DNA from: Lachnospiraceae bacterium
GTDB taxonomy: Bacteria > Bacillota > Clostridia > Lachnospirales > Anaerotignaceae
DNA length: 41,087 bases
Direction of reading: 5' to 3'
Assembly (NCBI GenBank): GCA_015057875.1
Contig: SVDG01000001.1
Span: 1-41,087, forward strand
Below the pieces are notes generated by a model. That model was not told the origin of the DNA. It saw only the letters and a list, made by a program, of their open reading frames with translations, and made no database searches. Both the position numbers and the translations under genes were made by a program. Positions 1 through 8,069 of this stretch are shown piece by piece (positions within the stretch are counted from its first letter, which is position 1; the number at the start of each line of letters is the position of its first letter).

Positions 1-87
1 ATTTTGTTTTCTCAGGCCTTTGGCTGTTCATATCCTACCCAACCACAGCATATACATAACCAAGCGATACTTAGAGGAGTGCTTGGT

Positions 88-237
88 TTGAAAACCTACA
101 TAGAAAAAAGAGCCGTTGAAGTGGCTAATTTTATGATACACCATAACGCTACCGTAAGGGAAACAGCAAAAAAATTCGGCATCAGCAAAAGCACGGTACA
201 TACGGATGTAACAAAATGGAACGGTTCGTTTGGATAG
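88..237 (+). pseudogene. Truncated spoIIID copy: the 5' fragment keeps the HTH, but the C-terminal half is replaced by a few unrelated codons and a stop
   Basis: From TTG 88 the translation LKTYIEKRAVEVANFMIHHNATVRETAKKFGISKSTVHTDVT matches the first 42 residues of the intact SpoIIID at 7821-8069 (38/42 by eye). Nucleotide similarity runs from about 28 to about 205 and includes the upstream TTCATATCC...GCATATACATAA block. The frames diverge after ...TAAC and stop at 235-237. Confidence 0.8.
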
Positions 238-301
238 TCACATAAGTTATATTTTAGTCCTGTAACAGTCCTGATCTATGTGTTTATATGACATAAATAA
301 C

Positions 302-345
302 AAAACACCACATTCCCAAAATCAATTTGGTATGTGGTGTTTTTG
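302..345. terminator. Hairpin terminator between the spoIIID fragment and the convergent LuxR-type gene
   Basis: AAAACACCACAT ... ATGTGGTGTTTT inverted repeat followed by a T-run. Confidence 0.7.
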
Positions 346-363
346 TATTATTATAAAAAACAA

Positions 364-2049
364 CTATAGTTTATTTTCTTCTCTCATTATCTGTGCATAT
401 AAAAGAAGCTCTTTTCTGGAATTAACTCCAAGCTTACCGTAAAGGTTTTTGTTATGGAATTTAAGGGTGTTTTCGGTTATCCCCAGAATATCCACTATAT
501 CTTTTGCACTTTTCCCTTCCATATAAAGCTCAAAAACCTCCCGTTCTTTTTTTGTGAGGGTCTTAAGGCTTGTCAGGAAAAGCCTATAGCTTTCAGGATC
601 CACCTCTTTTTTCTTTTTATCTATAAGGTGGGAAAGCCTTGTACGGGCCTTCGCCATTTCCTCTTTTGTATCGTTATGCCTGCTTTCAAGCTGTTTAAAC
701 TCTTCCTCCCTCTCCCGATCTCTCTGGGCAAGGAAATCAAATAGGTCATTTATCTCAAGATAAGGCATAGTATCCATATCGCTGTAGCCGTTTGTCCTTA
801 CCGACTCAAAAGCAGTTGTAACAGGCTTAAGATAATGATGACTTATTACCACAGACGAAAGTATGCTTAACAAAAGCAATATCGCTATAATAACAATAAG
901 ATATTTATCGTTGCCCGAAACAGCATCCTGAAGAGCCTTCTCGTGCATAAGCACAGCTACCTCCCAACGGTCTGTTTCATAGGGCGAATCAGAAGGATAC
1001 AGCCTTATACCAACGTTTTTTCCTCCATAGTTTATGTCTGAAGAGGCAAAACTTTCAAAGCTTGATATACCTTCGCCGTATTTAAGGTCTTCATACATCC
1101 TGTTTCCGGTAAGATAATAGTTTCCGGCAATTATACCCGAAGATGTCTTTATACAGTCATCCCCCTTGGGTGCGGCTATGGCAAAGGCATTTTCATATTT
1201 ATCGCTTGCAGGTGAATAAAGAGATTTAAACATCCTGTCGCTCACTTCAATGCCGCAAAGGCCGAATACCGTTCCATCCTTACTCCTTAATGGTACACAA
1301 AGTAGGAAACCTGCCTCGCTATTATCTTTAAGCGTTACCCTACCCGTCCAGTAATATAATCTTGAAAGCGGCAGATCGGGGTTTTGCCTTGCCTGCTCTA
1401 AAACATCCGCAAAAAAGTGCTGGTCAGCTGTATCATATTCCATTTTCCATTGACCCAGAAGCTCAATATTGTTCTCCCTTGCTATCTGTGCCGGCCCTCT
1501 CAGGTAATACATCTTGACCCCTACAGCCTGCGTGGATGTAGGCTGTGTTTTTTTTATAAAAATACCTGATCTTGCAAACTCAGCATTGTCACCTTCAGGG
1601 TTTATGGTCGTATCAAGAAGCACAAATGCCCCTCCGCAGGAACGGCCGTTTACCATAGATATAAGAAGATGCGCTTGTTCGGAAAGCATTGGTTCTATAA
1701 GCTCGGGGCGGGATAAAAAATCACCGGCAGAAATATCGTTTTCATCAAAAAAATTGTTTGCATGGGCAGACATACTTTCTGCCAGATTTATACCATCAAC
1801 AGAAAGGCTTCCGAAATCATCGGATATATTGTCCGCTATATTTGCAAGCTCTGTATCAAAAAAGTTATGCAGAGCTCTCTCCTCTTTCCCTGTAATGCCA
1901 AAAATCATTAGCAGCAGCGAAAACGCAAGTACGAGAGAAACCGTAACACATATAAAAAACAATATCAGCCTGCGCTGCAGAGTAGTCCCCTTTTTATTCC
2001 GTTCGTTTTTCCACAGGGAAAGAGCCTGCTTGAGCATACTCATACCCAT
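364..2049 (-). CDS. Membrane-bound one-component regulator: TM, extracytoplasmic Cache-like sensor region, TM, coiled coil, C-terminal LuxR/FixJ-type HTH
   Basis: 561-aa ORF with two hydrophobic segments (LILFFICVTVSLVLAFSLLLMIFGI and YLIVIIAILLLLSILSSVVI). The C-terminus LTKKEREVFELYMEGKSAKDIVDILGITENTLKFHNKNLYGKLGV is a classic LuxR HTH. The middle region has a Cache-like GLCGIEVS motif. The true start may be the ATG at 2043 or 2037 because the RBS GAGGGG abuts 2049. Confidence 0.85.
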   Translation of the reverse strand: MGMSMLKQALSLWKNERNKKGTTLQRRLILFFICVTVSLVLAFSLLLMIFGITGKEERALHNFFDTELANIADNISDDFGSLSVDGINLAESMSAHANNFFDENDISAGDFLSRPELIEPMLSEQAHLLISMVNGRSCGGAFVLLDTTINPEGDNAEFARSGIFIKKTQPTSTQAVGVKMYYLRGPAQIARENNIELLGQWKMEYDTADQHFFADVLEQARQNPDLPLSRLYYWTGRVTLKDNSEAGFLLCVPLRSKDGTVFGLCGIEVSDRMFKSLYSPASDKYENAFAIAAPKGDDCIKTSSGIIAGNYYLTGNRMYEDLKYGEGISSFESFASSDINYGGKNVGIRLYPSDSPYETDRWEVAVLMHEKALQDAVSGNDKYLIVIIAILLLLSILSSVVISHHYLKPVTTAFESVRTNGYSDMDTMPYLEINDLFDFLAQRDREREEEFKQLESRHNDTKEEMAKARTRLSHLIDKKKKEVDPESYRLFLTSLKTLTKKEREVFELYMEGKSAKDIVDILGITENTLKFHNKNLYGKLGVNSRKELLLYAQIMREENKL

Positions 2050-2072
2050 CCCCTCTTCTCATCTTCATACCG

Positions 2073-6910: not shown

Positions 6911-7669
6911 ATGCTTACTTCCTTTACGCGAAATTATCAGGATAATTCAACCGAAGCCGGTTTTCAGTTTACATTCTACTGCGATATCTGCGGTGATGGC
7001 TTCAAAAGCAGCTTTATAGAAAGCGAGACCTATAAAAAAGGCAAGCTCTTCCGTGGTATCGGCCGCGGTGCAAGTGCTTTAGGCAGTATGTTCGGTGGAA
7101 GCGTAAGCCGTATAGGATATGGTGCAGACAGGGCAACAAATATCCTCGGTGAACGCTTTGAAGGACGCTCTCCTGAATGGCAGAAGGAACACCAAAGAGC
7201 ATTTGAGATGGCAAAAAACGAGGCTATGCGTAACTTCCACAGATGTCCTTCCTGCAACAAATATGTATGCTCCCATTGTATGAATGAGGACGAAGGTCTC
7301 TGTACAGAATGTGCCCCCAGACAGGAAGTATATGTTGCAAAAGCAAGAGCAGAGGCAATGAAAAGAAATATTGACGATGCAGGTGCAGGTGCAACCGTTT
7401 GGGAAGGCAAGATAGAAAGCAAAACCACTATTTGCCCTCAATGCGGAAAGCCTGCAGGCAACGGCAAGTTCTGTAACAACTGCGGTGCATCAATGGCACT
7501 TAAAGTATGCCCTTCCTGTGGTGCACAGAACTCACTTACAGTTAGATTCTGCAATAACTGCGGAACAAATCTTCAGGTTCCTCCTCCATCGGCCGGAAAA
7601 TGTCCTTCCTGCGGAACAGTAAATGATCCCGGAACAAGATTCTGCGGTGAATGTGGAACAAAGCTATAA
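6911..7669 (+). CDS. Zinc-ribbon protein G (N-terminal domain paralogous to A, Gly-rich insert, three C-terminal ribbons)
   Basis: RBS GGGAGGG. The ATG is 1 nt after the stop of F. Motifs are RCPSCNKYVCSHC...CTEC followed by ICPQCG, VCPSCG and KCPSCG ribbons. Confidence 0.85.
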   Translation: MLTSFTRNYQDNSTEAGFQFTFYCDICGDGFKSSFIESETYKKGKLFRGIGRGASALGSMFGGSVSRIGYGADRATNILGERFEGRSPEWQKEHQRAFEMAKNEAMRNFHRCPSCNKYVCSHCMNEDEGLCTECAPRQEVYVAKARAEAMKRNIDDAGAGATVWEGKIESKTTICPQCGKPAGNGKFCNNCGASMALKVCPSCGAQNSLTVRFCNNCGTNLQVPPPSAGKCPSCGTVNDPGTRFCGECGTKL

Positions 7670-7683
7670 ACTTTATAACTAAT

Positions 7684-7720
7684 AAAGGCATTAGGGCATA
7701 AGAACCAATGCCTTTATTAT
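7684..7720 (+). terminator. Terminator of the zinc-ribbon operon
   Basis: AAAGGCATT ... AATGCCTTT hairpin followed by TTATTAT. The T-tract is weak. Confidence 0.6.
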
Positions 7721-7758
7721 AGAAAAGTATAAAACCCTTCCTCAGTTACCACATAATT

Positions 7759-7790
7759 TCATATCCTTCCTAAAGAGGGCATATACATAA
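7759..7790 (+). promoter_or_regulatory. Candidate mother-cell (sigma-E-like) promoter of spoIIID
   Basis: TCATATCC, 13-14 nt spacer, then CATATACATAA, which loosely resembles the sigma-E consensus (kmATATT / CATACA-T). The same two blocks are conserved upstream of the truncated copy at 29-59. B. subtilis spoIIID is sigma-E dependent. Confidence 0.3.
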
Positions 7791-7820
7791 GCAAGATGAA
7801 CTTTTTAGGAGTGCTTGATC

Positions 7821-8069
7821 TTGAAAGGATACATAGAAAAAAGAGCCGTTGAAGTGGCTAATTTTATGATACACTATAATGCTACCGTAAGAGAAACTGC
7901 CAAAAAATTCGGTATCAGTAAGTCCACAGTGCATAAGGACATAACCGACAGGGTAGAAAAGATAGACCCCGATCTAGCTTCATCCGTAAGGAAGGTACTG
8001 GAGATAAATAAGGCTGAACGCCATCTGAGGGGCGGCATGGCAACAAAGCGTAAATATATGCAAAAATAA
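7821..8069 (+). CDS. spoIIID: Stage III sporulation protein D (mother-cell transcription factor)
   Basis: The product has the length and sequence pattern of SpoIIID: ...KSTVHKDIT..., ...INKAERHLRGG.ATK.KY. The TTG at 7821 lies 9-10 nt after AGGAG. The ORF-track start at 7815 is too close to the RBS. Confidence 0.9.
   Translation: MKGYIEKRAVEVANFMIHYNATVRETAKKFGISKSTVHKDITDRVEKIDPDLASSVRKVLEINKAERHLRGGMATKRKYMQK

Follow-up and report, generated by a model that had tools for sequence, protein, structure and literature searches.

A Probable Fossil Recombinase Junction at Codon 38 of a Truncated spoIIID Copy in a Lachnospiraceae Contig, and Related Elements That Split the Gene

The present work concerns a 41,087-nt stretch of DNA from a Lachnospiraceae bacterium (assembly GCA_015057875.1, contig SVDG01000001.1), which is an entire contig and is called the window below, and in which the promoter and 5' part of the sporulation gene spoIIID occur twice, first as a truncated left copy that begins 27 nt from the contig start and then as part of a complete gene. 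Following sigma-E, SpoIIID is the first transcription factor to be specific to the mother cell. The analysis shows that the left copy departs from spoIIID at the CA dinucleotide of the His38 codon and continues into DNA resembling one arm of an attachment site for a large serine recombinase (LSR), and that in related loci the gene is split at the same dinucleotide by elements that encode an LSR. It is likely that positions 27-245 of the window are the fossil left junction (attL) of an LSR-moved element that intervened in spoIIID.

A broader and more novel reading, with a probability somewhat below one half (about 0.45), is that codon 38 of spoIIID serves as the attachment site for LSR intervening elements that form a large family in Clostridia of the gut and elsewhere. 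Where the gene is split, the species would need to remove the element in the mother cell, with sigma-E in control. This would be a rearrangement similar to that of skin, with the earliest mother-cell transcription factor as its target. The left copy and the layered scars described below would record repeated invasion and repair, maybe with mobile promoter-plus-5' cassettes that make insertion harmless.

The Two Copies of spoIIID

The features of the two copies are as follows.

27-59, + strand: left sigma-E-type promoter-like block (TTCATATCC ... GCATATACATAA), aligning with 7758-7790; leader and ribosome-binding site (RBS) up to 87
88-237, + strand: truncated spoIIID' open reading frame (ORF), 49 aa, TTG start; codons 1-38 from spoIIID, codons 39-49 (TDVTKWNGSFG) from element DNA
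193-205, no strand: recombination core ACGGTA-CA-TACGG, with the inferred crossover dinucleotide CA at 199-200 (His38 codon)
201-245, + strand: putative remnant of the P' (element-side) half-site of an LSR attachment site; outer motif GAACGGT at 219-225, 18 nt from the core
7758-7790, + strand: right sigma-E-type promoter-like block, aligning with 27-59 and conserved in the conspecific contig L191
7821-8069, + strand: intact spoIIID, 82 aa; uninterrupted target site (attB-equivalent), with the CA at 7932-7933

A sequence-only reading of this DNA had claimed colinear repeats of about 85% identity that extend beyond the coding region, and the alignments bear this out. The repeat finder returns a coding part (88-212 against 7821-7945, 125 nt, 86%) and a promoter part (27-64 against 7758-7795, 38 nt, 82%), such that 27-212 matches 7758-7945 at 82-86%, while a single colinear MAFFT alignment runs from the TTCATATCC...GCATATACATAA block through the RBS and the TTG start to approximately codon 42. 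Across the 188-nt repeat, BLASTN gives an E value of ~1e-46. The perfect block that had been reported is present, with a length of 45 nt (97-141, identical to 7830-7874) rather than 44. The GCATATAC box is invariant across all spoIIID copies compared, and both promoter blocks are presumed to be of the sigma-E type on the basis of the known sigma-E dependence of spoIIID.

The left copy is truncated and the right one full, as had been stated, with ORFs of 49 and 82 aa. The left ORF matches positions 1-42 of the 82 of the Pfam SpoIIID profile PF12116 (E 1e-17, direct scan), while the right copy is of full length and 95-98% identical to database SpoIIID proteins with a precomputed PF12116 assignment. 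Taking the family as full-length proteins of ~82-93 aa with a helix-turn-helix (HTH) and a C-terminal basic region, the right copy belongs to it; the left ORF, judged by its sequence, is a fragment and in function no SpoIIID family member.

The two copies differ at four of 42 residues (T3G, H19Y, T39K, and V41I), the number given before, although residues 39 and 41 fall past the true breakpoint at the CA of codon 38 and T3G is a strain-specific change of the right copy that does not occur in L191. This change is part of a strain-specific cluster at 7812-7829 (RBS to codon 3), consisting of a 1-nt insertion and the replacement of Thr3 by Gly, which is found neither in L191 nor in the relatives. 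When the left copy is compared with the conspecific right allele over codons 2-40, 12 synonymous and 4 nonsynonymous changes are counted (omega ~0.05), three of the latter four being located in the post-junction codons 39-40. Within codons 2-38, 12 of the 13 changes are synonymous, the probability of at least 12 of 13 under neutrality being 7e-8. As almost all differences are synonymous, the copies are alleles from different lineages, and the proposals of the sequence-only reading that substitutions are biased toward synonymous sites and that both copies evolved as working genes, not by local decay, hold.

We have also considered that the 5' end of the gene was duplicated locally and then decayed, or that the arrangement is an assembly chimera at the contig end. 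The direct orientation of the repeats and the position of the left copy so close to the contig start would be compatible with such an origin, which is nevertheless very improbable. A decaying copy would be expected to have an omega of ~1, the longest exact block shared is just 45 nt, and the nearest relatives of the copies are different, namely L183, L185, and L187 (91%) for the left copy and L191 (93%), L192 (91%), and L193 for the right one. Furthermore, the left copy ends in a motif common to ~87 unrelated contigs (see below). Finally, the independent contig L175, which is 100% identical over 5.3 kb and reaches 169 nt further left, spans the junction and confirms the linkage of the left copy to the LuxR-type gene that follows it, so the arrangement is no end-of-contig artefact.

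The left copy is mosaic in structure and is composed of four segments, namely a leader of the type associated with gene X (see below), nt 1-54 resembling the local clade, nt 55-111 with a different type of sequence, and finally the element arm. Relative to L192, there are no differences in the first 54 nt and then 13 in 57, this divergent patch (window 142-198) abutting the core. The leader is of the type seen in the right copy of L018 (L018_R), in L010, and in the second module of L198, unlike that of the window's right copy. The divergence of the right copy from L191, L192, and L193 is even on both sides of the CA, and there is thus no chimerism at the core in this copy.

Departure from spoIIID at His38

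A genome scan with SpoIIID revealed truncated 5' copies in two other organisms. Besides the window, L018 (one truncated copy) and L025 (two, in tandem) carry such copies ahead of a full gene, and all four truncated copies aligned depart from spoIIID at the CA of His38. Past the CA, they share CATAC(G/A)G..GT...(A/T)CGGTT, DNA that has no counterpart in full genes. The claim that foreign DNA was inserted into the 5' part of spoIIID is thus supported, as the break lies within the coding sequence, in codon 38 at the CA, where an LSR half-site is joined on.

A search with the junction-specific pattern returned 92 metagenome contigs, of which five are full-length variants with Thr39 and ~87 are true junctions, spread over ~20 lineages of the SpoIIID N-terminal part. 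The pattern demanded Thr39 (CATAC), and variants with Met39 and Ile39 (P0264 and P0243) escaped it, so the family exceeds 87 contigs. Truncated ORFs of 43-57 aa with similar tails are also common in the protein database. The ORFs stop at varying positions and the conservation of the DNA runs on beyond the stops, which indicates that the conserved entity is a DNA site and not a peptide.

A position weight matrix was built from 44 unique metagenome P' arms, using 25 positions free of the constraint of the search pattern. With this matrix, window position 210 scores 27.5 bits, which is the highest value among 82,124 positions (runner-up 14.8, mean -20.8, sd 8.4). The ungapped matrix recovered the arms of L018 and L025 poorly because of indels. 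The closest arm to that of the window is the one of L146, with 87% identity over 38 nt.

Complete Elements in Related Loci

In L160, the 5' half of spoIIID is followed by 6.1 kb encoding a MarR regulator, a MATE pump, a hemerythrin, an MCP, a small ORF, and a 499-aa LSR, and the 3' half of the gene begins at the CA of His38, directly past the LSR stop codon. A direct Pfam scan of this LSR gives the Resolvase (PF00239), Recombinase (PF07508), and Zn_ribbon_recom (PF13408) domains. The same layout is found over 12.5 kb in L128, with an LSR that is 65% identical, and in a 5.4-kb version in L156 and L087 (53%). In the L140 group, the LSR is 42% identical and its gene follows the 5' half immediately, in the same orientation. 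In the subgroup of L140, L141, L174, and L104, it starts ~64 nt past the junction on the strand of the spoIIID 5' half (~7164-8757 in oriented L140), an arrangement in which the spoIIID promoter could drive the LSR in the mother cell. In L141, the LSR has been cut down to a 138-aa remnant.

A further set of loci, L199-L204, belongs to a very common gut species, whose protein P0264 is indexed in 347 collection blocks and of which six loci were inspected in detail; spoIIID is split in all six. Here, the 6.1-kb element (e.g., L199:10001-16351) consists of an AAA-ATPase_like/PDDEXK_9 gene, a 74-aa ORF, a 512-aa LSR, and an MCP, followed by the spoIIID 3' half. The 74-aa ORF is, from its sequence context, a candidate recombination directionality factor (RDF). 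The three-domain architecture of the L199 LSR is taken from the precomputed Pfam families listed with the contig, and both the L160 and the L199 LSRs score below the NCBIfam cut-offs for CcrB, CcrC, and XisF. The three-domain architecture of ~500 aa is found in proteins of the related loci only, the window encoding none.

The 3' half of the split gene resumes at the CA of His38 in L160, L156, L128, and L199, and the reconstructed attP sites are inverted repeats centered on this CA. The L160 site reads ACCGTTC...ACCGTA-CA-TACGGT...GAACGGT, the arms of L156 are CCGTTCCC and GGGAACGG at +/-16, and the L199 site, TTTGTTACAAC-AGTA-CA-TATG-GTTGTAACAAA, contains a perfect 11-nt inverted repeat. In the same four elements, the right junction could be read, and the right arm on the core side is not spoIIID-like but holds the inverted partner of the left arm. 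The organization expected for LSR sites, namely an imperfect inverted-repeat attP around a 2-bp crossover and an attL composed of gene and element arms, is thus present. In the window, TACGG and GAACGGT occur at the same spacing as in the L160 attP, whose left arm holds the inverted partner ACCGTTC, and on these grounds the left copy is assigned as an attL made up of gene arm, core, and element arm.

It could be argued that the truncated ORF is no neutral scar but is under selection as a small protein, namely an HTH-only fragment of SpoIIID that is expressed from a sigma-E-type promoter and modulates SpoIIID or the timing of the mother cell. The promoter, RBS, start codon, and frame are all intact in the window, almost all of the other truncated copies keep the frame, ORFs of 43-57 aa occur widely, and the differences among the L025 copies in codons 2-38 are all synonymous. 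However, split genes need an intact 5' half anyway, and divergence before the copies were juxtaposed gives synonymous-only changes as well. The variable stop codons noted above also speak against a peptide, the DNA encoding the tail is the palindromic partner of the other arm of the element, and the fragment would end inside the recognition helix predicted from the Pfam SpoIIID and HTH matches and general knowledge of the fold. We consider this explanation improbable.

The complete spoIIID elements measure 5-12 kb with one LSR each, and most of their cargo is not of phage type (MATE pump, MCP, AAA-ATPase/PDDEXK, TraG fragments, and IS elements). Searches of viral contigs with SpoIIID and with the junction pattern gave two distant full-length homologues only and no junctions, and hence there is no evidence for the elements being phages.

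In the most frequent human-gut lineage, represented by L119 (oriented 764-12872) and ~20 similar human-gut contigs, AraC regulators and sugar genes of the GH31/GH32 type come after the scar, and neither a recombinase nor a second spoIIID part is found within 12 kb of it. This lineage has either a large element or a permanently broken spoIIID.

Right Copy and Intervening DNA

The window itself is not split. A tblastn search with the L160 LSR finds no similarity anywhere in the window, a Pfam scan of the ORFs between the copies finds no recombinase domain, and the window contains no right junction, the right copy being an ordinary uninterrupted gene. Compared with the class of intervening elements, the window has no LSR of its own and, in place of a split gene flanked by attL and attR, an attL only. 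As the right copy is complete with its own promoter, no rearrangement is needed, and the absence of both a recombinase and a split gene means that the window is not an active intervening element and is best called a relic, which has lost almost the entire element. None of the seven islands that combine a scar with an intact gene keeps an LSR in tblastn searches with the L160 LSR (a search that, for the small islands of L122, L168, and L093, did not include a Pfam scan of the ORFs). The element end lost from the scars is the one that holds the LSR in L160 and L128.

The features between the two copies are the following.

246-363, no strand: unique spacer with no similarity to any fetched element or relative; includes an inverted repeat at 296-349
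364-2049, - strand: LuxR/GerE-type regulator (Pfam GerE)
2073-3428, - strand: solute-binding protein (Pfam SBP_bac_8)
3738-5960, + strand: two small zinc-ribbon proteins, a lipoprotein, and a zinc-ribbon membrane protein (Pfam DZR, Zn_Ribbon_1)
5981-7669, + strand: three genes for double-zinc-ribbon proteins of 187, 114, and 252 aa, adjoining the intact spoIIID on its upstream side

The sequence-only reading took everything between the repeats for an island, and this is not supported. The order of the three double-zinc-ribbon genes and their place upstream of spoIIID and the Fe-ADH gene are kept in the sister species L193-L197 (88%, 59%, and 92% aa identity) and in L191, and these genes are, as judged from this synteny, ancestral neighborhood and no cargo. 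The overall identities are 97.6% for the conspecific L191 and 82-91% for the sister species, both of which share the ADH-PNPOx-HD-aconitase right flank. The genes at 3738-5960 are present in L191, while L193 has only a distant homologue of the lipoprotein (33% aa). In L176, orthologues of the LuxR, SBP, and Zn1 genes (81%, 77%, and 76% aa) adjoin spoVE-murD, with no spoIIID fragment there; the homology ends at window 374. There is no shift in GC content across the DNA between the copies, which appears to be mostly ordinary chromosome and not a discrete island. The possibility of one conserved island was dropped, since a tblastn search of all island proteins against 80 genome loci showed no shared cargo.

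The idea that the repeats bracket an element finds no support either: an attL half-site of the LSR type terminates the left copy, while the right copy is an uninterrupted attB-like gene without a right junction, and the left flank is itself scar-array DNA. If the left copy is an attL remnant, the point at which the stub of the element was illegitimately joined to the chromosome must lie within 246-363. The inverted repeat at 296-349 is probably the LuxR terminator.

The operon of double-zinc-ribbon genes (window 5981-7669; L193:1565-3256) is kept immediately upstream of spoIIID in two species, and a link of this operon to sporulation is possible from its position.

The presence of the arrangement among relatives is variable, in agreement with the earlier proposal. 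L181-L190 have spoIIID and the ADH gene with neither island nor duplicate, and the site is uninterrupted in L192 and scarred in L198 and L205. The gene upstream of the unduplicated spoIIID differs, being a permease in L181-L190 and a flavodoxin-like gene in L192. In L192, the uninterrupted spoIIID lies upstream of apparently the same Fe-ADH, of which the contig includes only the last 53 residues (100% identical). Downstream of the intact spoIIID, the window has a hairpin terminator (8070-8092) and then the Fe-ADH gene in convergent orientation, a right flank that L181 and L193 share. We have also considered L181 as an empty site of the same species and rejected it, as its identity is 83.5% and its promoter region and upstream gene are different.

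Left Flank and Repeated Scars

In L198 and L205, a flavodoxin-like gene is followed by a spoIIID 5' half with attL, by a gene that we call X, and then by a second 5' half with attL that is preceded by a hairpin, a promoter, and a leader; ThiS and ThiF come next. Both loci are judged conspecific with L192 on short flanking sequence, and as L192 is uninterrupted and they are scarred, the site looks polymorphic within the species. Gene X (568 aa; L198:656-2362, - strand) has no Pfam or NCBIfam match, and its first part also lies in the DNA left of window position 1 (L175:5426-5500). It carries a kinase-like motif, DRHxxN...IDNDLSFG.

The DNA just left of the window is ~99-100% identical to the first 25 residues of X and the intergenic region, the identity ending at the start codon. 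A 2.2-kb unit consisting of gene X, hairpin, promoter, leader, and 5' codons is ~99% shared between two species, in both cases beside spoIIID 5' modules. As the DNA left of the window matches that between the two L198 scars, the window starts inside a scar array. Tandem scars are also found in L025 and L093.

L025 is a complete genome (Chakrabartyella piscis BP5G, NZ_CP092441.1), in which two tandem attL scars precede the intact spoIIID at L025:2036-10246. Its islands contain an IS3-family transposase and RhuM, followed by an IS1182-like transposase, AAA_14/DUF4143, and a BspA-type LRR protein.

Proposed Origin of the Arrangement

In the mechanism that we propose, the left copy would do nothing today, save possibly expressing the 49-aa fragment, and sporulation would rely on the right copy. 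An interrupted spoIIID would become costly once the recombinase of the element fails, and the surviving lineages would have recombined in an uninterrupted allele together with donor flank, the old 5' half staying behind as a scar. This recombination may have been an import from a related strain or break-induced copying from the recombinase cleavage site. The repair would delete the recombinase side of the element and drag in the flank of the donor, and repetition of invasion and repair would lead to layered scars.

An alternative, which follows the model of the sequence-only reading, is that the 7.7 kb between the repeats constitute one integrative island, the right end of which carries a surrogate promoter and the first ~40 codons, such that the gene stays functional after insertion. 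A scar with an intact copy downstream recurs in the window, L018, L025, L122, and L168, the duplicated module of near-identical pairs starts just ahead of the promoter (-64 to -81), and the 2.2-kb X unit shared by two species ends in a spoIIID 5' module. The L018 right copy provides a further argument. Relative to L010, L018_R (L018:10001-10243) shows 0 differences in 18 before nt 22, 23 in 92 across nt 22-108, and 5 in 133 after the CA, i.e., its sequence looks foreign only as far as the core and native beyond it (23/92 vs 5/133, Fisher p 9e-5).

On the other hand, the right arms of L160, L128, L156, and L199 are not spoIIID-like, and a gene-like left arm joined to an element right arm is an attL. 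LSR reactions are directional, and an attL is not integrated into an attB unless the reaction is changed; by this general knowledge, the insertion that the surrogate requires would not normally take place. No LSR is kept in the seven islands mentioned above, the genes adjoining the right copy of the window are syntenic in the sister species, the right copy shows no switch at the core, and there is no shift in GC content. We therefore regard this alternative as unlikely, yet it is the most credible of the three competing explanations.

Two simpler routes were rejected. A simple Campbell single crossover predicts a mosaic opposite to that of L018, while a simple LSR integration of a surrogate-bearing element predicted a core switch in the right copy of the window, which is not seen. 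The divergent patches that abut the core may result from gene conversion started at core breaks.

Several observations weigh against the reading of a recurrent LSR invasion followed by repair. Neither a recombinase nor a right junction is found in the genome of the window, so that the LSR origin of its junction rests on the similarity over the ~45-nt half-site and on the shared breakpoint. A homologue of gene X upstream of spoIIID was found in no sampled genome, and the DNA read on the left side extends no further than gene X. We infer the rescue by an uninterrupted allele, and no donor was found. In the near-identical pairs (L122, L168, and L093), the duplication starts just 64-81 nt upstream of the start codon, a regularity that fits a defined promoter-plus-5' cassette better than random import. 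Finally, the right copy of L018 differs from its nearest relative only in the patch ending at the core, which suggests a site-linked event.

Comparison with Known Intervening Elements

Elements that intervene in sporulation genes form a known class, including skin in sigK, SPbeta in spsM, vfbin in spoVFB, gin in gerE, and yin in yabG (PMC4191935, PMC5595907, PMC10747680). In the literature searched, no paper names spoIIID as a target of such elements. The spoIIID-splitting family appears widespread in gut Clostridia and belongs to a known general class, with a target that is new to the literature searched.

The closest similarity is to skin in sigK (with SpoIVCA in B. subtilis and CD1231, together with an RDF, in C. 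difficile). L160, L128, L156, and L199 likewise have an LSR element inside the gene of a mother-cell regulator, flanked by attL and attR with a short common core and with the recombinase gene at one end. Unlike sigK, the target here is spoIIID, which acts earlier, and excision of the elements is a prediction. The window differs further in being an attL relic with an intact gene. The gin element in gerE of B. cereus ATCC 10987 (PMC5595907) is also a non-phage element that splits the gene of a mother-cell HTH regulator of ~75-80 codons, with serine recombinases and a short overlap at the junctions. However, gin has 28.6 kb and three recombinases, as compared to 5-12 kb and one LSR for the spoIIID elements, and arrays of scars with an intact gene have not been reported for gerE. 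SPbeta/spsM, vfbin/spoVFB, and yin/yabG (PMC4191935, PMC10747680) share the LSR, and the RDF where studied, with the other intervening elements of sporulation genes, but are prophages or prophage-like, in contrast to the mostly non-phage cargo of the spoIIID elements, and have other targets.

The arrangement in the window also resembles that of genomic islands and phages that integrate into tRNA genes and bring a surrogate end of their target, in that insertion leaves a working gene, with a partial copy of its end at the other junction. In those elements, however, the duplicate belongs to attP and the integrase is a tyrosine recombinase, whereas here the right arms of four elements are not gene-like and the intact spoIIID stands in its ancestral neighborhood. 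Chromosomal curing via uninterrupted alleles (PMC12637031) is similar to the process proposed here for re-supplying an intact spoIIID. Classical curing is a clean removal through two homologous flanks, unlike the present case, where one junction and the old 5' half remain, which implies that one recombination end was non-homologous. The phage-encoded spoIIID-like genes that have been reported (PMC5027557) are a different phenomenon.

If the broader reading is correct, the interruption of spoIIID would be a new and earlier checkpoint among the sporulation genes controlled by rearrangement (sigK, spsM, spoVFB, spoVR, gerE, and yabG). In B. subtilis, SpoIIID helps to turn on the skin recombinase gene. 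The hosts of the spoIIID elements are abundant gut anaerobes with spore-dependent transmission, and the truncated "SpoIIID" ORFs of ~50 aa in the databases probably mislead both annotation and the inference of sporulation capacity. The layered scars would show how genomes cope once such an element loses its recombinase, and natural sets of LSR, attB, and attP with a highly conserved 40-bp target may be of interest to developers of recombinase tools. Taken alone, the window has a modest message, namely that the left copy is a relic and that the "island" is mostly ordinary chromosome.

Other Features of the Window

An exact look-up of the ADH protein of the window gave no match, while the entry P0001 was matched for LuxR. 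The remaining observations concern ordinary features, i.e., a T-box leader at 16647-16876 (- strand) upstream of the alanyl-tRNA synthetase gene and a tRNA gene at 22727-22800 (+ strand).

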